A stretch of 64,000 nucleotides of DNA, taken from the NCBI GenBank assembly GCA_903831595.1, contig CAIKXY010000013.1, forward strand, positions 6,793 to 70,792, given 5' to 3'. Every line of letters begins with the position of its first letter. The stretch's first letter is position 1. The DNA comes from an uncultured bacterium. Lineage in GTDB: Bacteria; Patescibacteriota; Minisyncoccia; Phycocordibacterales; GWA1-40-21. The position numbers were made by a program, and so were the translations under genes. Below the pieces are notes generated by a model. The model was not told the origin of the DNA. It saw only the letters and a program-made list of their open reading frames with translations, and made no database searches. Shown here in pieces: positions 3,765-64,000 of the stretch.

Positions 3765-4019
3765 ATGTACTATACTTATGTATTAAGGTCGCCCAAAGAT
3801 AAAAAGTTCTATACAGGTTTTACAAAAAATTTTAAAATAAGATTTGAAGAACATACAAAAGGTAAAATTGAATCTACAAAAGAAAGGCGGCCGTTAGAAT
3901 TAATATATTACGAAGCGCGTCATAATCGACAAGATGCAACATATAGGAAAAAGTATTTAAAAAGTTATCATGGAAAGTCATTTATTAGAAAAAGAGTCAA
4001 ATCTTATTTAACAGGGTAA
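3765..4019 (+). CDS. GIY-YIG nuclease domain protein (84 aa)
   Basis: YTYVLRS...KFYTGFTKN...RFEEH matches the GIY-YIG motif arrangement. Confidence 0.5.
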   Translation: MYYTYVLRSPKDKKFYTGFTKNFKIRFEEHTKGKIESTKERRPLELIYYEARHNRQDATYRKKYLKSYHGKSFIRKRVKSYLTG

Positions 4020-17941: not shown

Positions 17942-18409
17942 TTATACAGCAAGTGTTTGTTTTTTTTCCCTTTTTAAGCATTTATTACACAAAGGCCTTC
18001 TTTTCTTATCATAACCTTGTATGTGTTTCTTTCTATTACATGAAGAGCATACCTTGTGTTTTGAAGTGTCATTTCTATAACCTTTCGCGTAGCAAGAATG
18101 ACATATTCTCCCATCTATACATCTTTTATGCACCGCTTTAATTTTTTTGCAAATTGTGCAACGGAAATGATTTTGTGGATTTTTTCTGAAAATGATTGAG
18201 TAACAACTTACACAAATTGCCTCTCCTTTTTTATTTCGTTTTTGAACATGTGCCTTTTTTCCACATCTGTAACATTTTTCGTGTAATGATTTGTTTTTGT
18301 ATTTAATCTTTTTATTGCAGGCTGGACAAATTTTTTTTCCACTCTTTTTGTTCCTATAAACCATTTTTTTGTATTTCCCGCAAATTTGACAAGTGTCAGA
18401 GCTTCTCAT
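17942..18409 (-). CDS. Lysine- and cysteine-rich protein made of five tandem CxxC...CxxC zinc-ribbon-like repeats
   Basis: 155 aa with about 20 Cys in a periodic C-x2-C-x(8-12)-C-x2-C pattern roughly every 28 aa, and more than 25% K/R. Confidence 0.5.
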   Translation of the reverse strand: MRSSDTCQICGKYKKMVYRNKKSGKKICPACNKKIKYKNKSLHEKCYRCGKKAHVQKRNKKGEAICVSCYSIIFRKNPQNHFRCTICKKIKAVHKRCIDGRICHSCYAKGYRNDTSKHKVCSSCNRKKHIQGYDKKRRPLCNKCLKREKKQTLAV

Positions 18410-18635
18410 TTAGCCTCCTTTGGCTACGTTGTAGTCAAAAAACATAAATCTAAAAACATAATACATCAATTTTTGTTAGAAGTCAATTAAGAGAAGGATT
18501 CTAGCATGGGTATTTAATTGTTTTTTACTTTGTATTAACTAGTAAAAAATTATCAAAGGTCTTTAAGTCCTCACGCAAACAAAAGCCTCTTATTGTTTCC
18601 TGACACATCAAAAAATCAGCTTTCGCTGATTTATT

Positions 18636-18662
18636 TGTGCACGGGAGAGGAGTCTTGACCAT
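18636..18662 (-). pseudogene. tRNA-Leu(UAG) 3'-end fragment (degenerate direct duplicate)
   Basis: tgtgcacgggagaggagtcttgacc duplicates the plus-strand image of the tRNA-Leu 3' end at 18813-18835. It has its own downstream hairpin at 18611-18636. Confidence 0.6.
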
Positions 18663-18812
18663 TACATGGTCAGTATAGTCTTCGTATTTTTTCGGATTAT
18701 TAAATCCTCAAAAATATGCTCAGACTTTTCAAGCCCTCTCACGCAAGCAAAGTAGTTTGCTTGCTCCTTAGCAAATGAAAAACCTCAGCAGAAAGCCGAG
18801 GTTTTTCATTTG

Positions 18813-18971: not shown

Positions 18972-19294
18972 AAGACCCACATGCGCAACTATAAAAATAA
19001 CAGAAAAATACGGAAAAATCAATTAAAATTAGGGAATCGGTTATATTTTCTACTTGAGTCCCATCCCGAACTCTAACAGCATATTTCTTTTGGTCCCATT
19101 CAAAACAATAAACAGACGGGGAGGGACCGCTTCGCTTATCTCTCCTTACAGGAACTGTACACCTTTCGTATCGTACTCACGACGTTCCGTGCGATAGACT
19201 CAAGGTTTTTCGATTCCCGCACACAAGCAAGTAATCTTGCTTGTTCCCGAGCACAAAATTAAAATACACATTTGAAATGTGTATTTTAATTTTG

Positions 19295-25133: not shown

Positions 25134-27812
25134 ATGCCACCATTTAATAATTTTACAACTAAAGCAAAGGAAACAATCAGAAGAGCTCACGAGCTTGCTA
25201 TTGAACGTGGACAAAATCATGTGAACCCGTTGCATCTTCTTGCAGCACTTGTGCTTCAAGAGGAAAGCGTTGTATCTTCAATTTTAGACAGACTAGAAAT
25301 TGATTTAATTTTATTTACAGATTCTATTCTTGAAGCAATCGAATCTAGTGCGGGTTCAACAACTCTTTCCCCAGCAAATCAAATTTATTTAACTCCAGAC
25401 TTGGCAAAAATTTTAGATTTATCTGGAAAAGAAGCGCAAGATTTGAAAGATGAATTTATTTCAACAGAGCATCTTTTTTTAGCGGAACTTGATACACCAA
25501 CTTCTGCTCGAGATATTTTAGTTAGATTTAAAATTGATAAAGCAACCATATTAAAAATTCTTTCTGAATTAAAAACTTTAAAAGGTGATGAAATAAATCA
25601 ACCAAAAAAATACAGAGCGATTTTGAAATATACTAGAAATCTCACAAAACTTGCAAAAGATAATAAACTTGACCCAGTCATCGGACGAGATAATGAAATC
25701 TCAAGAATAATTCAAATTCTTTCAAGAAGAACAAAAAATAATCCAATTCTTATTGGTGAGGCTGGAGTAGGAAAGACAGCAATTGTTGAAGGACTTGCGA
25801 TTAGGATTGCAACAAACGATGTCCCCGAATCTTTGAAAGATAAAGAATTGGTTTCACTCGACCTCGGACTTCTTATCGCAGGAACAAAATATAGAGGAGA
25901 ATTCGAGGAAAGATTAAAAGGAATTATAAAAGAAATTGAAAAATCAGAAGGTAAAATAATTTTGTTTATCGATGAGATACATACTATTGTAGGGGCAGGT
26001 TCAGCCGAAGGTTCAATGGATGCATCAAATATGTTAAAGCCAGCATTATCAAGAGGTGAACTTAGAACTATCGGTGCAACAACAATTAAAGAATATCAAA
26101 AAATCGAAAAAGACCCAGCATTAACAAGGCGTTTTCAGGCCGTCATTGTTTCTGAGCCATCAATTGAAGATGCAGTTGCAATACTTCGAGGGCTTAAAGA
26201 AAAGTACGAACTTTATCATGGAGTCAGGATTACTGATGATGCAATTTTGTCTGCTGTGAATTTGAGTTCAAGATATATTACCGATAGATTTTTGCCTGAC
26301 AAGGCGGTTGACCTTATTGACGAGGCTTCATCAATGCTAAAAATTTCTCTCGAAAATATGCCACCAATTCTTGAAGAGACAAGAAGAAAAGTTATGCGAC
26401 TTGAAATTGAAAAAGAAGCATTGAAAAAAGAAGTTGAAGGCGAAAAGAAAAAAGAAACAAAAAAGCGAGTTGAAATAATTGAAAAAGAAATTGCAGATTT
26501 GAAAGAAAAAACTTCTGACCTTGAACTTCGATGGACAACAGAAAAAGAAATATTAAGTGGGATAAAATTTCTGAAAAAACAATTGGAGATTTTGAGAATC
26601 GATGCAGAAAATGCAGAAATACAAGCCGACCTTTCAAAAGCTGCTGAAATAAGATATGGAAAAATACCAGAAGCGGAAAAAGAATTGGATATAAAATTAA
26701 AGAAATTAAAAAAACTTCAAACTTCACGAAGGGTTTTGAAAGAAGAAATTACAGAAGAAGACATTGCATCAGTCGTTTCCAAATGGACTGGTGTGCCGGT
26801 TTCTCGCATGCTTGAAAGTGAAGCTCATAAGCTTGTCAGGATGGAACAAGAGCTTGAAAAGAGAATTGTCGGTCAAAATGAAGCAGTAAGAAAAATTGCC
26901 GATACAATAAAAAGATCCCGTGCCGGTATTGCCGACCCAAATAGACCAATCGGTTCATTTATTTTCTTGGGTCCAACTGGGGTTGGAAAAACTGAACTTA
27001 CAAAAGCACTTGCAGAATTTATGTTTGATGACGAAAGAGCTTTGATAAGAGTAGATATGTCAGAGTTCATGGAAAAACATTCAACCTCAAAACTTATTGG
27101 TTCGCCTCCAGGATATGTTGGTTATGAAGAAGGTGGAGCACTCACAGAAACAGTTCGCCATAGACCATATTCAGTTATTTTATTTGATGAAATTGAAAAA
27201 GCACATCCAGAAGTATTTAACTTATTACTTCAGGTTCTTGATAATGGACGACTTACAGATTCAAAAGGAAGAGTAGTAAACTTCAAAAATACTTTGATCA
27301 TTATGACATCAAATATTGGGGCTCAATTCATAGATAAAATGGAGCAAATTGGTTTTACAGCAAAAGATGAAAAGAAAAACGAATACAATTTGGTAAAAGA
27401 AAAAGTATTGGCAAGTTTGAAAGATTTCTTTAGACCAGAGTTTATGAACAGACTTGATGATGTAATTATCTTTGATATCTTGTCGAAAGAAGCCATTAAA
27501 AAAATTGTTGATATTCAATTAAACTTGGTCAGAGAAAGGTTGAATGCGAAGGAAATTACTTTGCAGATGTCAGAAAAGGCGATCGAATATCTTGCAGATA
27601 AAGGTTACAATCCACAATACGGTGCAAGACCACTTAAGAGATTGATTCAGGATAAAATTTTAAATCACATTGCATCATTAATTATTTCAGAAGGAATATT
27701 AAAAGGTGGAACTGTTGTTGTTGATATAAAAAATGATGAGATGTCTTTTAGTGTAAAGAAGGGGAAAAGAGGAATGATTATTGAAAAGCAATTAGTTGTA
27801 AGTAAACCCTAA
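25134..27812 (+). CDS. clpB: Chaperone ClpB (two AAA+ modules with a middle coiled-coil domain)
   Basis: 892 aa with a Clp N-domain, NBD1 GEAGVGKTAIVEGLA, a long coiled-coil M-domain, NBD2 GPTGVGKTELTKALA and a sensor-2 region. Confidence 0.9.
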   Translation: MPPFNNFTTKAKETIRRAHELAIERGQNHVNPLHLLAALVLQEESVVSSILDRLEIDLILFTDSILEAIESSAGSTTLSPANQIYLTPDLAKILDLSGKEAQDLKDEFISTEHLFLAELDTPTSARDILVRFKIDKATILKILSELKTLKGDEINQPKKYRAILKYTRNLTKLAKDNKLDPVIGRDNEISRIIQILSRRTKNNPILIGEAGVGKTAIVEGLAIRIATNDVPESLKDKELVSLDLGLLIAGTKYRGEFEERLKGIIKEIEKSEGKIILFIDEIHTIVGAGSAEGSMDASNMLKPALSRGELRTIGATTIKEYQKIEKDPALTRRFQAVIVSEPSIEDAVAILRGLKEKYELYHGVRITDDAILSAVNLSSRYITDRFLPDKAVDLIDEASSMLKISLENMPPILEETRRKVMRLEIEKEALKKEVEGEKKKETKKRVEIIEKEIADLKEKTSDLELRWTTEKEILSGIKFLKKQLEILRIDAENAEIQADLSKAAEIRYGKIPEAEKELDIKLKKLKKLQTSRRVLKEEITEEDIASVVSKWTGVPVSRMLESEAHKLVRMEQELEKRIVGQNEAVRKIADTIKRSRAGIADPNRPIGSFIFLGPTGVGKTELTKALAEFMFDDERALIRVDMSEFMEKHSTSKLIGSPPGYVGYEEGGALTETVRHRPYSVILFDEIEKAHPEVFNLLLQVLDNGRLTDSKGRVVNFKNTLIIMTSNIGAQFIDKMEQIGFTAKDEKKNEYNLVKEKVLASLKDFFRPEFMNRLDDVIIFDILSKEAIKKIVDIQLNLVRERLNAKEITLQMSEKAIEYLADKGYNPQYGARPLKRLIQDKILNHIASLIISEGILKGGTVVVDIKNDEMSFSVKKGKRGMIIEKQLVVSKP

Positions 27813-27842
27813 CACCTAAATTATAAGATTTAGGTGTTAGGG

Positions 27843-27890
27843 TAAATAAATAAAACAAAAAGAGCGGGGCGCTTTGCGCCCCGCTCTTTT
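27843..27890 (+). terminator. Intrinsic terminator (agagcggggcgctttgcgccccgctct + T-run)
   Basis: Long GC-rich perfect hairpin flanked by A- and T-runs. Confidence 0.75.
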
Positions 27891-27931
27891 TGTTTGAAAT
27901 TCCGAATAATAAATGATACTATGCTTTTATT

Positions 27932-28013
27932 GCGCCGGTCGTATAGTGGCAATTACACGAGACTGTAAATCTTGCGGCTTCGGCCTTCGGGGGTTCGAGT
28001 CCCTCCCGGCGCA
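27932..28013 (+). tRNA. tRNA-Tyr (anticodon GUA), class II
   Basis: gcgccggtcgtatagtggcaattacacgagaCTGTAAAtcttgcggcttcggccttcgggggttcgagtccctcccggcgca. Confidence 0.8.
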
Positions 28014-28051
28014 CAAAAATAAAACGCTTTAATAGCGTTTTTATTTTTGTG
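28013..28051. repeat. 39-nt near-perfect palindrome immediately 3' of tRNA-Tyr (cacaaaaataaaacgct ttaat agcgtttttatttttgtg)
   Basis: Read directly from the sequence. Equivalent long palindromes follow tRNA-Leu(UAA) at 19252-19296 and tRNA-Phe at 32584-32623. Another lies between tRNA-Glu and a tRNA-Glu-like 5' fragment (39606-39634), and a self-complementary stretch occurs at 63941-63956. Confidence 0.7.
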
Positions 28052-28372
28052 CGTCCGGAGTAAGTGCTAGGATGCACTTACGTGAGGGACTCGAAGCCTG
28101 TTTGAGCAGATTTTGTGAGTGAAGCGAAACAAAATCTCCAAACAGGGTACTGACCCTGTAAGGGTCGAATGTCCCTCCTCGTGTTCGTATTTCAAATTTG
28201 GCGTGGGGACCTGAATTTTATGACTTGACCGAGTCCCTCCCGGCATTTCGTTGCGCTCAAAATTTTGTTGGACCCCAAATTTTATGACTCTCATCTCTTG
28301 ATTAATCAAATTTGTCATGCTTTACTTGCATTAGAAGTTAAGTCTAAAAATTCTGATGGACGGAGGTCCAAT

Positions 28373-28786
28373 ATGCACATAAAAGCGCCGATTGTTTCTA
28401 AACCTGTAGGAGCAAGTGAAATACCTGAAGGAGGCTTTGGATGGAATCTTGATCATCGCGGAACTGACGGTCCAATTCTGTGTGAATTTTGTGGAACGAA
28501 TCACCCAGAGCGATTAGATCAGTCATACACACTGGGCACAGTTCTTGGTTTGCAAGTGGTTGAGGAGTGTTGCGGAAAAGTAATAGATATTTTGTACAAA
28601 GAGCTAGCGGAAGATTTTACACAAGCTTATCTTGAAGAATTTGCTAGAAACCCGACCAATCCTCGCTTTTTCTTTTTTCTAGACAAATTGTCAAAGGTAC
28701 TTGAAGTAGCCGCGAAAAAAGTAAATGAAACATCCGCTGCTATTTCTAGCAGCAAAGAGTCACTCTCAAAGATAAAAAATGTTTAA
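28373..28786 (+). CDS. Hypothetical protein (GC-richer than its surroundings)
   Basis: Track ORF 28265-28786. The likely start is MHIKAPIV, preceded by a ggaggt RBS. Composition differs from the flanking genes. Confidence 0.4.
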   Translation: MHIKAPIVSKPVGASEIPEGGFGWNLDHRGTDGPILCEFCGTNHPERLDQSYTLGTVLGLQVVEECCGKVIDILYKELAEDFTQAYLEEFARNPTNPRFFFFLDKLSKVLEVAAKKVNETSAAISSSKESLSKIKNV

Positions 28787-28962: not shown

Positions 28963-29463
28963 ATGAATAAAAGCTTGTCGGCAAGAGAAGTAATTAAGAA
29001 AGCGTGTCATTCTTTAAGTTCAGAGTTAAAAGGATGTAAATTCGATATACACGCGATTTCAGAAGTTTCTACATGCTGGGAAGGAAAGGGATACATGAAA
29101 TATCACGAGGCCTACATTTTACGTGGGGCCAAAGGATATTGGGGGGTATGTTTGGGTGAACACGACAAAAGCGTGTTCACAAAGCAATACGACTGTGATT
29201 TAACAGTTATAAGAATTCTCGGCCCAGAAAAGAAATTCATTGTTAGTGCAATTGAACAGGCGAAATGGTTTTCTAAGTCTCTGATGCACGCGACGCGGGA
29301 TAATGTGTTTCACTTTAATTTAGATAATTATCCCAAGCACATAAAAATACTAGAAACAAAAATGAGGGAAAATTTAATCAGACTTGACGTAGGAGGTGTC
29401 CGATATAAAGAAAGTTTCCCAAATGAATTACATGGTGTCATGAGAAAATTGGTGACATCATAA
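28963..29463 (+). CDS. Hypothetical protein (GC-richer than its surroundings)
   Basis: 166 aa with a ggggga RBS upstream. No recognisable motif. Confidence 0.4.
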   Translation: MNKSLSAREVIKKACHSLSSELKGCKFDIHAISEVSTCWEGKGYMKYHEAYILRGAKGYWGVCLGEHDKSVFTKQYDCDLTVIRILGPEKKFIVSAIEQAKWFSKSLMHATRDNVFHFNLDNYPKHIKILETKMRENLIRLDVGGVRYKESFPNELHGVMRKLVTS

Positions 29464-32403: not shown

Positions 32404-32623
32404 ACAAAAAACCGCGAAAGCGGTTTTTTAATGTGCCAAGGGCCGGAATCTCTCCCTCACCTCTCATTTCGTCGACACTCAATTCGGGCTAGGCACCAGC
32501 TCATTCATTTTTTCTGCTGAAAAAATATCATTCCGCTGTTCTCGTCCGGACAGAAGCAAAGCAGTTTGCTTCTTCCCTTAGCCCAAATTTAAAAACACCA
32601 GATACTGGTGTTTTTTAAATTTG

Positions 32624-33015: not shown

Positions 33016-33258
33016 AAGTATATTATACTATACGGTTGGTATTTATCAATTATTTGTGGTGCGTCCCTGGCCAGACCATGAGTACATTTATTTCCTTCGA
33101 CTAAAACTTTGCCGTCACTCAGCTTTGTCTAGGCACCTGCTCATTTGTTCCACAAGCTTGTGGAACATCATTCCGCCGTTCGATTCTGGCTCACAAGCAA
33201 AGAAGTTTGCTTGTTCAGCGACACATAATAAAACTGCTAGAAAAGCATTATTATTATG

Positions 33259-39498: not shown

Positions 39499-39600
39499 AA
39501 AACATAATTCATAAACTATACCGAACCCCGAATTTCCCTTCTTACAGAAGCTGTACACCTGTTCTGTTTTTTATTTCGCTATAACTCATAAAAAACTATC

Positions 39601-39680
39601 ACAGGTCTTGTGTTTGGGTCCCATATCCCAAACACAACCTTTCAAAGGCCTATGTCTAACTATCAGACGATAAGGCCGAT
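39601..39680 (-). pseudogene. tRNA-Glu-like 5' fragment (acceptor 5' strand, D-arm, degenerate anticodon arm; no T-arm or acceptor 3' strand)
   Basis: ggccttatcgtctgatagttagacataggcctttgaaaggttg is near-identical to the 5' half of tRNA-Glu. It then runs into the palindrome ttgtgtttggg...cccaaacacaa instead of a T-arm. Confidence 0.55.
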
Positions 39681-39742: not shown

Positions 39743-39762
39743 TGGAAGAGTGGCTGAGTGGG
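39743..39762 (+). repeat. Direct copy of the 5' end of tRNA-Ser(CGA) (tggaagagtggctgagtgg), about 120 nt upstream of the gene
   Basis: Matches 39866-39885 exactly. The interval between holds the hairpin ggaagccacgtttcgcgaaagcggcttcc. Confidence 0.7.
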
Positions 39763-39866
39763 AAAAAGTTAAACTACTTTAATTTTTTCCACGAGCGAAG
39801 CGAGGGCGGCAACCAGGAAGCCACGTTTCGCGAAAGCGGCTTCCATTTGAACGAAGTGAAATATAT

Positions 39867-40553: not shown

Positions 40554-40839
40554 CAAAAATTCCCGAATAGGGAATTTTTGGGACGGTAAGAAAGCTCTGG
40601 GAGAGCTTTCGTGGGGATTCGAAAACCTTTGATAGTTTTTTGCAAGCTAACGCGAAGTAAAAAACAGAAAAGGTGTACAGAAACTGTAAGTTTCGAAATT
40701 CCTCTACATCACAAACAAAAAACTAGTGACCGAGTACTGCACCGTCCACAAAATAAAAAACCGCCATTTGGCGGTTTTTTATTTTTTCAAAAATTTAAAA
40801 ATATATTTTTAGACTTTAATAGTATCACCAATAACTATG

Positions 40840-61454: not shown

Positions 61455-61795
61455 TTGCCTTTATATTGGATAACCGCTTTAGCTGTAAAGTTGGAGAGGA
61501 AAGTCCGAACACTACCTCGATGTTAAAGTTGAGGAGAAGGGTAGCGGGTAACACCCGTCCATAGCAATATGAGAGGTGCGAACAGTGACGCCGATGCCGA
61601 AAGGCTAGGATTCCTTCGGGAATAATCTCATTGAAAAGTGAGGGTGCAACGGCAAAATTCCTTACCTTAGTGCAAGGCCGTGCCTACCTCGTGTAGGAGC
61701 GCCGCTTGAGCCAATCAGTAATGTTTGGCCCAGATAGATGGTTATCTCGTTGTAGTAATACAGCGAACAGAATTCGGCTTATAGGTATAGAGGTT
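61455..61795 (+). ncRNA. rnpB: RNase P RNA (bacterial type A)
   Basis: Universally conserved P4 strands ggagaggaaagtccgaacac and acagaattcggcttata, plus a P15-like ggtaacacc and internal conserved loops. The 5' and 3' ends are approximate. A terminator follows at 61800-61835. Confidence 0.8.
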
Positions 61796-61799
61796 ATGG

Positions 61800-63781: not shown

Positions 63782-64000
63782 TATTAAAAACCGCCGAGGG
63801 GGCGGTTTTTTAGTGCGGGAGATGGGGATCGGTCACAAGTATTTTTCTGCTGAAAAATCTTGCGACCATTACATGGTCAGTACACCATTTTGGATATTTT
63901 ATTTTGCTGCACTCATAAAATATCTCAAAAGGTCTTTCGGTTGGGTCCCAACCCAATCCTCAACCCGACTCAGCTCGTCAGCTTCCGTCTTCCGATTCCT

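Follow-up and report, generated by a model that had tools for sequence, protein, structure and literature searches.

Putative small insertion modules at Patescibacteria tRNA genes that duplicate the tRNA end and carry its split complement

What are the 275 nt that follow the tRNA-Tyr gene of this Patescibacteria genome, a tract in which parts of the tRNA end recur in both orientations? The preliminary description of the locus had listed a palindrome, an inverted tRNA-end copy split by a hairpin, a direct repeat of the tRNA 3' end and a 12-nt tandem motif, and had suggested a recombination site in front of composition-shifted genes. We found all of these features, each within one base of its reported position, in the 64-kb stretch of DNA analyzed here (the window), and the earlier reading as a whole was partly supported. 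The tract consists of one A-type module and one or two D-type tail relics (Table 1). On balance, and with moderate confidence, we regard 28015-28289 as stacked relics of very small (∼100 to 250 nt), protein-less, modular insertion elements found at the ends of Patescibacteria tRNA and tmRNA genes.

Table 1. Parts of the tRNA-Tyr locus and related modules in the window
Feature	Position	Strand	Basis or remark
Promoter-like TTGAAA-17-TACTAT ahead of tRNA-Tyr	27894-27922		Predicted motif
tRNA-Tyr(GTA), CCA not encoded	27932..28013	+	ARAGORN; Rfam tRNA, 53 bits
Proximal end segment E, final ∼20 nt of tRNA-Tyr, T-loop to discriminator	27994-28014		
Linker L: A-run, hairpin, T-run; terminator-like	28015..28048	+	Terminator scan, both strands, at 28021-28041
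X'acc, complement of acceptor 3' strand and discriminator; gtgcgTccgg, one additional T	28049..28058	+	
Side hairpin H1*, gtaagtgctaggatgcacttac, 8-bp stem, 6-nt loop	28060..28081	+	Variant of family hairpin aCAAGCAAA-CTGC-TTTGCTTGt
X'T, complement of T-stem 3' strand and T-loop	28082..28097	+	Exact over 28084-28095
A-type body	28098..28166	+	nhmmer E = 7e-10; row 9 in 25-sequence alignment with covarying stems
X1, degenerate direct tRNA-end copy ggtcgaatgtccctcctcgtg, closes A-type module	28163..28183	+	Read off sequence
D-type 3' tail relic: hairpin caaattt...gaatttt, then ATGACTTGACCGA	28190..28229	+	Holds 12-nt motif copy 1
X2, perfect 15-nt direct tRNA-end copy CGAGTCCCTCCCGGC	28230..28244	+	
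Second D-type tail relic, without GACCGA and X	28249..28289	+	Holds 12-nt motif copy 2; kept in L001
Two tandem 3'-type modules after tRNA-Leu(TAG), distal more decayed	18500..18811	-	
3'-type A module after tRNA-Leu(TAA)	19075..19293	-	
3'-type B module after tRNA-Phe	32433..32622	-	
3'-type B module after tRNA-Arg(CCT)	33063..33257	-	
5'-type module before tRNA-Glu; degenerate ∼40-nt copy of tRNA-Glu 5' half, E-A body	39499..39680	-	
5'-type module before tRNA-Ser(CGA)	39744..39866	+	Same design in L128, L147
3'-type A module after tRNA-Val	40555..40745	+	
Composite D/E/A module, cut at window end	63820..64000	-	Ends tRNA-like cgatccccatctcccgcac, then terminator

The palindrome reported at 28013-28051 is present but imperfect. 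Its arms run into the tRNA gene (28003-28024 and 28039-28060; 22 nt, 91% complementary), and its center, together with TATTTTTG, has the form of an intrinsic terminator on both strands, which accounts for the linker only. The acceptor-like 5' strand that had been noticed after the palindrome corresponds to X'acc, and the inserted hairpin H1*, previously placed one base away, interrupts the complement exactly at the acceptor/T-stem junction; the copy in L001, the closest relative, is identical. The inverted T-arm copy is an exact 12-nt complement of ttcgagtccctc within arms (27991-28008 and 28081-28098) that are 89% complementary over 18 nt. The A-type body that follows has a closing helix, a long hairpin whose internal loop is GA-rich, the element GGUACUG and the 3' hairpin gaccc-uguaa-gggtc, and the Tyr A-type fold is predicted at -59.9 kcal/mol (z = -6.3). 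Within X1, gtccctcc recurs at 28171. The first D-type tail relic aligns with D tails at L017 Val, L002 Tyr, L019 Glu, L052 Arg and L073 Gly and in the module at the window end. No promoter-like site was found inside the Tyr module.

Could this arrangement have arisen by chance, or through a single duplication or palindrome-forming event confined to the Tyr locus? AT-rich intergenic DNA yields short repeats, and the 12-mer aattttatgact is not significant by itself (4 occurrences with at most one mismatch versus 2.3 expected). Both of its reported copies are exact (28214-28225 and 28278-28289, the second having been placed at 28277), inside a 23-nt repeat of 78% identity. Rather than an independent tandem motif, however, it proved to be the 3' arm of the D-type module hairpin, present here in two relic copies. 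Against chance stands the direct repeat of the tRNA 3' end, which was confirmed: the 15 nt at 27996-28010 return at 28230-28244, and with up to three mismatches this 15-mer has 3 matches in the window versus 0.09 expected, a number reached by 0 of 100 shuffles. Moreover, dozens of tRNAs in many genomes show the same architecture together with homologous bodies, and the chance reading, refuted by this recurrence, retains a probability close to nil.

We counted at least 10 modules in the window. The split-copy architecture, which had already been noticed at other loci with different inserted hairpins, does follow the genes for Leu-TAG, Leu-TAA, Phe, Arg and Val, and the 3'-type layout was found after six tRNAs in the window. 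Its order is E, a linker hairpin, the Watson-Crick complement of E interrupted by a hairpin exactly at the acceptor/T-stem junction, a structured body and a direct copy of E; the body may be one or several, of types A to D, and the spacing from X'acc to X'T is ∼25 nt throughout the family. A mirror form (5'-type) occupies tRNA 5' ends. At tRNA-Ser, the native promoter abuts a copy of tRNA nucleotides 1 to 18, which is followed by a hairpin, a body, AGCCAC, a mini-hairpin, CTTCC, a 22-nt linker and the tRNA; this entire unit is absent from relatives. Enrichment of a GCGAAGC mini-hairpin (8 occurrences in the window versus 2.5 expected) was considered and rejected, only 2 of the 8 being inside modules. 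The duplicated segment measures 13 to 22 nt in 3'-type and 18 to ∼40 nt in 5'-type modules, and the left edge of the identity block varies with body type (TTCGA, CGA, ATTC, GTCC or TCC). This variability fits neither a transposase with a fixed stagger nor a fixed crossover point.

Such modules are widespread. Among close relatives, 26 of 83 tRNAs are followed within 140 nt by an inverted T-arm copy, whereas the controls gave none (0 of 83 on the upstream side, 0 of 76 at +1 kb); for distant relatives, the corresponding values are 15 of 168 versus 1 of 166 and 4 of 158 in the controls. In 1.4 Mb, 18 of 19 CTGC-loop hairpins are located 5 to 50 nt past a tRNA of the same orientation, and the remaining one, 138 nt past a tRNA, is part of a tandem module. 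The hairpin 18-mer was detected in at least 120 metagenome contigs. The 80 contigs examined contain 82 matches, of which 41 lie no more than 400 nt downstream of tRNAs (21 species called by ARAGORN); other metagenome matches follow tmRNA. Related modules are also present in Patescibacteria metagenome-assembled genomes. A phage or plasmid origin was considered and rejected, the 18-mer having only one match in IMG/VR, a chance one within coding sequence.

The modules span 100 to 250 nt and contain no open reading frame (ORF). A Pfam scan of window ORFs gave no integrase, transposase or reverse transcriptase domain, the other window ORFs being judged housekeeping by eye, and the ORF clusters that recur within 4 kb of the at least 120 metagenomic copies are housekeeping only (such as IF-2, GatA, ParB, MiaA and SmpB), with no recombinase. 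At gathering score, Rfam 15 recovered only tRNAs and RNase P over the window; at E values up to 5 it added sub-threshold hairpin look-alikes and no ribozyme. Inside the modules, neither ARAGORN nor Rfam gave a tRNA or tmRNA call when the window was scanned. We found no description of these tRNA-end modules in the literature, and the family is apparently undescribed so far.

Under the reading drawn from the preliminary description, a site-specific recombinase acting on gagtccctcccggc would have used the 15-nt repeat as its att core and brought in the downstream genes as an islet. According to PMC9897764 (citing Williams 2002 and Reiter 1989), integration classically takes place at tRNA 3' ends and leaves a partial tRNA copy behind. 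Also in favor of the islet, the distance from tRNA-Tyr to lepA ranges from 1.5 to 6.8 kb among relatives, no family could be assigned to the two orphan ORFs that follow the module (and precede lepA, divIC, tRNA-Gly and glutaredoxin), and the GC content is somewhat higher there. However, the repeat closes a ∼230-nt mini-module and precedes the genes; no further copy of the tRNA-Tyr end was found downstream in the window, and neither a second repeat at the far end nor joint inheritance of repeat and genes was observed. At the orthologous tRNA-Tyr locus of L001, a 183-nt internal deletion has removed the body and the direct repeat while the same two ORFs are kept, essentially the outcome that had been named as speaking against a recombination site, and this largely refutes the islet. 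No integrase is found among the scanned window ORFs or in the variable Tyr-lepA stretch of relatives, and none of 80 related loci has a tRNA end repeated more than 400 nt away. The compositional shift is weak evidence, as the GC fraction of 0.39 at 28 to 30 kb includes the housekeeping gene lepA and other windows reach 0.37 to 0.385. We thus consider an att-bounded islet very improbable. The broader parts of the proposal are supported: the repeats are related to the tRNA 3' end, and they do record an insertion into a tRNA gene that duplicated the end of the gene.

The modules match the local tRNA. At Arg, Tyr and Leu-TAA, a single linker/hairpin/body lineage is 83 to 86% identical over 142 to 174 nt, and the differences are confined to X'acc, the X'T stem and the distal copy, which follow the local tRNA. 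At stem positions that are not Watson-Crick paired in the tRNA, the split complement (X') is the complement of the 3' strand in 81 cases and a copy of the 5' strand in 9; the T-stem G·U position of tRNA-Tyr is one where the Watson-Crick complement is found. In Ala modules, G3·U70 is rendered as A3-U70, so that the identity pair is lost. On these counts, we rejected the idea that X' is a copy of the tRNA 5' strand, as in a tandem tRNA duplicate. X' is likewise not the complement of a mature CCA end, as in a primer-binding site, since it runs on along the genomic trailer (cac-aaa). No strand bias was seen where E and its complement are mismatched (19 G·T versus 23 A·C).

Such matching might suggest nucleic-acid-guided or RNA-mediated homing, in which the split complement would pair with a tRNA-sense target, or in which the genomic copies would record a small circular RNA or DNA. 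Candidate enzymes acting in trans would be of the HUH type, the IS110/Nop type, a reverse transcriptase or another kind, and in the circular variant the rod-like stem of a replicating circle would be the tRNA acceptor/T helix. This reading is favored by a complement that is strictly Watson-Crick to the target strand and extends into the genomic trailer rather than CCA, by the guide-hairpin-guide layout with fixed spacing, by the one body lineage with target-matched segments at three tRNAs, by the free shuffling of modules among elements and by the lack of a linked protein near the metagenomic copies; a circle of 5' strand, hairpin, body, 3' strand and linker would also unify the 3'- and 5'-types. 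On the other hand, the two halves form a single interrupted antisense to one strand, unlike bridge RNAs and tigRNAs (PMC12045711), the distal copy has to change with the target as well, neither a ribozyme nor any other Rfam match was obtained, IMG/VR gave only the chance match mentioned above, and no candidate enzyme was found. We consider guided homing distinctly doubtful. The same low probability applies to its specific form, in which the split complement would be a programmable guide, with protein-less modules homing to tRNA and tmRNA ends by ∼20-nt pairing and re-templating guide and distal copy for each target, possibly via a circle whose stem is an acceptor/T helix.

The structure of the modules points to selection on a single-stranded form. 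In the B body, 94% of cells are paired versus 40 to 42% in slid controls, and 25 pairs show double changes versus 5 to 8 in controls, a value reached by 0 of 500 shuffles; ∼32 G·U cells versus ∼8 A·C cells place the G·U pairs on the sense strand. In the 3' hairpin of the A body, three of five pairs show 10 to 13 double changes. The sense strand folds better than the antisense strand by 4.5 to 4.8 kcal/mol (P = 0.003, n = 20). In the modeled fold of the sense strand, the complement and the distal copy would close a helix imitating the acceptor/T-stem "top half" of the neighboring tRNA, with the hairpin in place of nucleotides 8 to 48 and the body in place of the T-loop. The design corresponds to a tRNA-like minihelix, in which a 7-bp acceptor-like stem is stacked on a T-stem-like helix: X' occupies tRNA positions 1 to 7 and 49 to 53, and the minimum-free-energy fold of the L006 Tyr module has an 8-bp P1, the H1 hairpin and an 8-bp P2 (-65.9 kcal/mol, z = -6.5). 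By eye, the bodies are suggestive of hammerhead, k-turn and C/D structures, the B body having a C/D-like motif (AUGAUG...UGA). A kissing interaction of the H1 loop (CUGC) with body loops (GCAG) was rejected as inconsistent between copies.

These properties are also compatible with a host function. The modules could be a host-serving RNA domain of the tRNA transcription unit, cotranscribed and folding as a mimic of the tRNA top half, that would direct processing by RNase P, RNase Z or the CCA-adding enzyme, persist as a stable small RNA, or act as a decoy drawing off factors that attack tRNA acceptor ends, with selection or gene conversion keeping the duplicated end and the complement matched to the tRNA. 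Besides the compensatory covariation with sense-strand G·U pairs and the more stable sense fold, several features argue for such a role. On the sense strand, the hairpin invariably comes after the 5' acceptor-like strand, in 3'- and 5'-types alike, which suggests that an RNA-level design is conserved rather than a DNA mirror image. The spacing at the acceptor/T junction is constant, and 5'-type modules, lying between the native promoter and the tRNA, must be transcribed. However, the modules are patchily present among genomes with 92 to 96% LepA identity, most of the Tyr module is deleted in L001, and X'acc is decayed at Tyr, Phe and Leu-TAG in the window genome. The same tRNA carries different body types in different genomes, tandem copies exist, the Ala identity pair is not kept, and a terminator-like hairpin separates the tRNA from the 3'-type module. 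A host RNA alone would also leave the spread of homologous bodies to many tRNAs unexplained, and we regard it as possible but unlikely.

Orthologous sites can be filled, empty or partly deleted. The tRNA-Gly site is empty in the window genome and in L002, L003, L004, L006 and L017, and in L001, L010 and L039 it is filled by a 128- to 136-nt unit that ends in a tRNA-end copy and is followed by the same flank. A terminator-like hairpin is absent from the empty sites and lies within the insertion at the filled site, and on this evidence linker L comes with the module and is not native to the tRNA. Each empty site could be an exact loss between direct repeats rather than the ancestral state, and gain is therefore inferred only from the tandem copies (Leu-TAG, L053 Arg and L114 tmRNA), the body-type differences on one tRNA and the one lineage on three tRNAs.

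Returning to the insertion-element reading, we propose that the modules are most likely non-autonomous and home to tRNA ends. A module would enter through recombination in the short segment common to it and the tRNA end, either in a Campbell-type event or by repair synthesis on a small circle or tandem intermediate in which the acceptor 5' strand is followed by the hairpin, the body, the acceptor 3' strand and the linker. A 3'-side crossover would give a 3'-type module and a 5'-side crossover a 5'-type module, with the mobilizing enzyme acting in trans. At tRNA-Tyr, a newer A-type module (28015-28186) would have come to adjoin the gene, displacing outward an older D-type tail with its end copy (28187-28244) and a second tail relic (28245-28289). 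The complement would keep the duplicated tRNA end paired, so that tRNA folding and processing stay normal, and may double as a recognition structure. In the window genome the Tyr copy is decaying and, in this view, dispensable. Besides the variable length of the duplicated segment, the covariation of the bodies and the lack of a G·T bias in mismatches of E with its complement, several points speak against this reading: no mobile intermediate, recombinase or fresh insertion was seen, there is no simple model for how complement and distal copy come to match each new tRNA, and the upstream terminator-like linker should restrict transcription of 3'-type modules.

How do the modules compare with known systems? 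CIME-like elements are non-autonomous derivatives of integrative elements. As in the tRNA/tmRNA integrative elements of the tyrosine-integrase type (Reiter 1989 and Williams 2002, cited in PMC9897764), insertion affects the 3' part of the gene, the gene is regenerated and a copy of its end lies at the far side; the copy spans the T-loop region to the 3' end, and serial insertions stack outward. The 15-nt repeat and the filled and empty tRNA-Gly sites likewise recall attL/attR direct repeats. Unlike integrative elements, the modules measure 100 to 250 nt, have no integrase within them, among the scanned window ORFs or recurring near the metagenomic copies, show a variable left edge instead of a fixed crossover, use tRNA 5' ends too, carry a split complement and covarying bodies, and spread one body lineage across dozens of tRNAs.

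MITEs, REP/BIME sequences and the IS200/IS605-derived PATEs are small, non-coding, hairpin-rich, mosaic and dependent on an enzyme in trans. IS200/IS605 elements have short internal guide bases that anneal to one strand of the flanking target. The modules resemble this group (the MITE survey is PMC11602168) in being small, non-coding, hairpin-rich, mosaic, intergenic and often beside terminators. Unlike MITEs, they have neither fixed terminal inverted repeats nor a target duplication of fixed length (13 to 22 or 18 to 40 nt), and their terminal complementarity is derived from the target and changes with the tRNA. PATEs and REPs are characterized by subterminal hairpins recognized on one strand, by insertion 3' of a short target that is not duplicated and by a Y1 HUH transposase in the genome; the modules have hairpins and a strand-specific structure, yet the tRNA end is duplicated, the complementarity is ∼20 nt rather than the 4 to 5 nt of IS200/IS605, and their location is strictly at tRNA ends. 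Folded single-strand recombination sites include integron attC and CTXphi attP. The modules are similar in their order (E, spacer, complement of E, cargo, E), in their imperfect palindrome with an extrahelical element and in their strand-specific structure, but their ∼20-nt core is the tRNA end, and no IntI/Xer motif and no cargo gene were found.

Among RNA systems, the tRNA-like domain of tmRNA, viral 3' TLS and mascRNA also form an acceptor/T-stem-like helix from their ends with foreign RNA between. Plant tRNA-snoRNA dicistrons are processed by RNase Z (cited in PMC12045711), and by analogy the linkage of the modules to the tRNA transcription unit suggests that tRNA enzymes may process them. 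In contrast to tRNA-like domains, the modules have no free T-loop, which is paired or replaced by the body, their helix follows the neighboring tRNA instead of having one fixed identity, and the identity pairs used in aminoacylation are not retained. Bridge RNAs (IS110) and tigRNAs (TIGR-Tas), systems of a type known from CPR bacteria, have guide segments that pair with opposite DNA strands and an adjacent IS110 or Tas (Nop-domain) gene (PMC12045711). Two target-complementary segments flank a hairpin or loop there as in the modules, whose B body also has the C/D-like motif, but both module segments complement the tRNA-sense strand, neither an array nor a donor-binding loop was found, and no IS110 or Tas gene was found nearby; TIGR-Tas (PMC12045711) was judged inapplicable as an explanation.

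If the family is as it appears, Patescibacteria genomes of ∼0.7 Mb hold dozens of tiny structured modules on their tRNA genes. In annotation, such loci yield tRNA-fragment or pseudo-tRNA signals and long palindromes that can be mistaken for att sites, islands or artefacts of assembly. The central question is how a protein-less element of 100 to 250 nt gains a copy and an exact complement of each new tRNA end. Solving it could bring to light a new mechanism of homing or templating, or a new way in which RNAs are built on a tRNA scaffold and released by tRNA-processing enzymes; the guide reading, if true, would make the modules a new class of mobile element of ultra-small bacteria, one that is guided by nucleic acid and retargets itself. 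The covarying A to D bodies are candidate new structured RNAs, and existing groundwater metagenomes and metatranscriptomes allow direct testing.

The preliminary description had listed a palindrome, a split inverted copy of the tRNA end, a direct repeat and a 12-nt tandem motif beside tRNA-Tyr. All of these features are present in the sequence, with the hairpin coordinates off by one base, and the architecture that it reported at further loci was found in the window after tRNA-Leu(TAG) (twice, in tandem), Leu(TAA), Phe, Arg(CCT) and Val. At these sites the tRNA is followed by an A/T-flanked hairpin (the linker), the complement of the acceptor 3' strand (X'acc), a second hairpin, the complement of the T arm (X'T), a body of ∼100 nt and a direct copy of the tRNA end. 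The tRNA-proximal Leu(TAG) module is intact and the distal one decayed, which fits serial insertion.

nhmmer profiles built from the window copies and used on related genomes detected many further copies, as well as a truncated one at the window end. The latter is a composite, with an A-type body carrying a gggaccc hairpin nested in a D-type body; it finishes with cgatccccatctcccgcac and a terminator, and its tRNA or tmRNA lies past the window end. Loci centered on LepA place the host within the Patescibacteria (Paceibacterota/Parcubacteria MAGs). Inverted T-arm copies, counted with at most one mismatch in 12 nt, were strongly enriched at tRNA 3' ends: in close relatives they occurred within 140 nt downstream of 26 of 83 tRNAs, compared to 0/83 in the 140 nt upstream and 0/76 at +1 kb, and the corresponding counts in distant relatives were 15/168, 1/166 and 4/158. 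All 19 hairpins with the conserved CTGC loop in 1.4 Mb followed a co-oriented tRNA at a distance of 5 to 50 nt, except for one at 138 nt that belongs to a tandem module, and the two halves of the complement (together X') were separated by a nearly constant ∼25 nt. A metagenome scan with an 18-mer of this hairpin yielded at least 120 contigs. Of the 82 matches on the 80 of these that were examined, 41 were located no more than 400 nt downstream of 21 different tRNA species called by ARAGORN, several others followed tmRNA genes (with two tandem modules on contig L114), and further matches were modules at tRNA 5' ends (5'-type).

Features of the tRNA-Tyr locus and of other loci (window positions unless a metagenome contig is named)
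Feature	Location	Strand	Remarks
Sigma-70-like promoter TTGAAA-17-TACTAT	27894-27922		Directly upstream of tRNA-Tyr
tRNA-Tyr(GTA)	27932-28013		
Near-palindrome	28013-28051		Encloses terminator-like hairpin 28021-28041 (scored, both strands)
A-type module	28015-28186		Body matches A profile, E=7e-10; degenerate end copy ggtcgaatgtccctcctcgtg at its close
gtgcgTccgg	28049-28058		Complement of tRNA-Tyr acceptor 3' strand
Hairpin gtaagtgctaggatgcacttac	28060-28081		
12-nt complement	28084-28095		Exact; T-loop and T-stem 3' strand
D-type tail	28190-28244		Aligns to 3' tails of D-type modules: hairpin AAATTT...GAATTT, ATGNNTGACCGA, end copy
Direct copy of tRNA-Tyr end, CGAGTCCCTCCCGGC	28230-28244		Perfect, 15 nt
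Second D-type tail	28249-28289		Without end copy
Glu 5'-type unit, related	39499-39680	-	Degenerate ∼40-nt copy of tRNA-Glu 5' half
Ser(CGA) 5'-type module	39744-39866	+	Starts with exact copy of tRNA nt 1-18 (39744-39761)
tmRNA genes with modules at tRNA-like 3' end	L099 8330-8830; L111 3300-3979; L114 6246-6900		
Leu(TAG) tandem modules	18500-18811	-	
Window-end composite	63820-64000	-	
Lysine-rich 155-aa protein	17942-18409	-	Adjoins Leu(TAG) modules downstream; about five CxxC zinc-ribbon repeats; weak DZR matches only
GIY-YIG nuclease-domain ORF	3765-4019	+	84 aa, stand-alone
RNase P RNA (class A)	61458-61797	+	112 bits versus gathering score of 100; divergent version

Comparison of related loci revealed both empty and filled sites. 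The tRNA-Gly(CCC) site was empty in the window and in L002, L003, L004, L006 and L017, and in L001, L010 and L039 it was filled by a 128- to 136-nt unit consisting of a linker hairpin, cgagtg, a hairpin, gggcgagaatcgaa, a short body and attctcgccactcgcac. Since the same flank resumes beyond this unit and directly abuts the tRNA in L002, the linker hairpin is part of the insertion. At tRNA-Tyr, a clean A-type module of 166 to 167 nt, its 16-nt end copy perfect, is present in L006 and L017; L002 has a D-type module, and the site is empty in L003 and L004. Decay of X'acc in the window genome was also seen at Phe and Leu(TAG).

At the window Tyr locus, two or three insertions are stacked, and the direct repeat is the closing end of a mini-module. 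The repeat CGAGTCCCTCCCGGC has three matches in the window with up to 3 mismatches (0.09 expected), and aattttatgact occurs as two exact copies inside a 23-nt repeat of 78% identity. Both copies of the 12-nt tandem motif lie in D-type tails, and the motif is thus the D-type hairpin's 3' arm, present twice. The arms of the near-palindrome extend into the tRNA, with 28003-28024 and 28039-28060 being 91% complementary over 22 nt. The direct repeat had also been read as the att core of a downstream islet. This reading is essentially refuted by L001 (96% LepA identity), which has tRNA-Tyr, linker, X'acc and hairpin identical to those of the window, lacks window positions 28089-28271 through a deletion between GGAC repeats, and nevertheless keeps the same two downstream ORFs. 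Insertion at the tRNA end held up, the att site for downstream genes did not, and the Tyr locus is a dispensable relic.

Those two ORFs (28370-28786 and 28963-29463, both +), orphans of 138 and 166 aa, lie between the module and lepA; Pfam, PHROGs and NCBIfam gave no match for either. Both are absent from L002, L003, L006 and L017, in which other genes, alanine racemase-like ones among them, occupy the Tyr-lepA interval of 2.7 to 6.8 kb. Two strong perfect hairpins of 16 and 20 bp, the second scoring as a minus-strand terminator, were observed between clpB and the tRNA-Tyr promoter (27806-27895).

Modules at tRNA-Arg in L006, tRNA-Tyr in L017 and L006, and tRNA-Leu(TAA) in the window have linker style, hairpin and body in common, with pairwise identities of 83 to 86% over 142 to 174 nt. 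They vary in X'acc, the variable X'T-stem position and the distal copy, each fitting the local tRNA. Bodies are also exchanged independently of the other module parts: the L001 Cys and L019 Phe modules have E-A bodies of 91% identity and unlike left parts, and the B-type bodies of Phe and Arg modules have hairpin variants in common whose distribution does not track tRNA type.

In single-stranded form, pairing of X' with the distal copy closes the module. The fold of the L006 Tyr module (-65.9 kcal/mol, z=-6.5) comprises P1 and P2 of 8 bp each, with the side hairpin between them, and the hairpins of the body; the A-type module at the window Tyr locus reaches -59.9 kcal/mol (z=-6.3). X'acc is equivalent to tRNA nt 1-7, the hairpin stands in place of nt 8-48, X'T starts with the T-stem 5' strand and the body replaces the T-loop, making the module a mimic of the acceptor/T "top half" of the adjacent tRNA. 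We rejected the idea that X' duplicates the 5' strand of the tRNA: where the stem has G·U or another non-Watson-Crick pair, X' was the 3'-strand complement in 81 cases versus 9. G3·U70 of tRNA-Ala, for instance, becomes A-U, and X' runs on into the genomic trailer, not CCA.

The bodies are under structural selection. In the B body (11 sequences from Phe and Arg modules), 25 of 36 predicted pairs show double changes, and 94.4% of cells are paired, compared to 40 to 42% with slid partners, with 0/500 shuffles reaching the observed value; ∼32 cells are G·U versus ∼8 A·C. Among 25 A-body sequences, one of them the window Tyr copy, 3 of the 5 pairs of the 3' hairpin show 10 to 13 double changes. 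Sense-strand folds were 4.5 to 4.8 kcal/mol better than antisense ones (p=0.003, n=20), and mismatches between the tRNA end and its complement showed no strand bias. Given this covariation, the modules could possibly be RNA domains that serve the host. By eye, a motif resembling box C/D or a k-turn (cagcGGAAUGAUG, hairpin, AAUGAGCUG) was noted at the base of the first B-body hairpin (window 32436-32591 and 33073-33225, both -, and the B-body alignment). GCGAAGC, a very stable DNA mini-hairpin sequence, occurs 8 times in the whole window (2.5 expected), and similar loops cap many module bodies, e.g., ...gcgaagcgGTCC....

A mirror form exists at tRNA 5' ends. In L001, L006, L015 and others, the native divergent promoter region directly abuts tRNA-Ser(CGA); in the window it abuts a 5'-type module instead. 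Here the copy of nt 1-18 is followed by a hairpin, a body, AGCCAC (complement of nt 7-12), a mini-hairpin, CTTCC (complement of nt 1-5), a 22-nt linker and the functional tRNA. L128 and L147 share this design, and their complements, CCTCC and GCTCC, co-vary. The Ser(CGA) and Glu modules stand back-to-back between the two divergent tRNA genes, which in relatives such as L001 are separated by only the 66-nt promoter region. On the sense strand of both module types, the hairpin comes after the 5' acceptor-like strand, indicating conservation of an RNA-level layout rather than a DNA mirror image. Lying between promoter and tRNA, 5'-type modules must be transcribed within the pre-tRNA leader.

No ORF was found inside the modules. 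The window ORFs that were scanned yielded no domain of an integrase, transposase or RT, only the small GIY-YIG ORF; no recombinase recurred near the at least 120 metagenomic copies, and there were no large repeat-bounded islands. Small ORFs similar to the GIY-YIG ORF of the window were observed within 4 kb of matches to the side hairpin at three metagenome loci, including L085. The modules had no Rfam or viral match, and a full-text literature search found no earlier description. Their strict Watson-Crick matching makes guide-directed or RNA-mediated homing a possible alternative; TIGR-Tas and bridge RNAs (PMC12045711) have a similar "guide-hairpin-guide" look, but their strand logic is different and a protein gene lies next to them. 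More probably, modules enter through recombination or repair synthesis in the stretch common to module and tRNA end, with a small circular or tandem intermediate made of 5' strand, hairpin, body, 3' strand and linker. Such an intermediate would account for both 3'- and 5'-types, variable duplication length and tandem copies. Through the complement the duplicated end would stay paired, permitting normal tRNA maturation. Complement and distal copy might be reset at a new tRNA by templated correction of the quasi-palindrome formed by tRNA end, linker and complement, by mismatch correction of an annealed intermediate, or by fast compensatory evolution in a replicating pool.

We conclude that the insertions stacked at the Tyr locus are relics of a recurrent, modular and protein-less insertion family that is specific for tRNA and tmRNA ends, carries a copy and a complement matching its target, and displays single-strand structural selection, polymorphism and decay. 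This family appears to be undescribed, and it is mechanistically puzzling.
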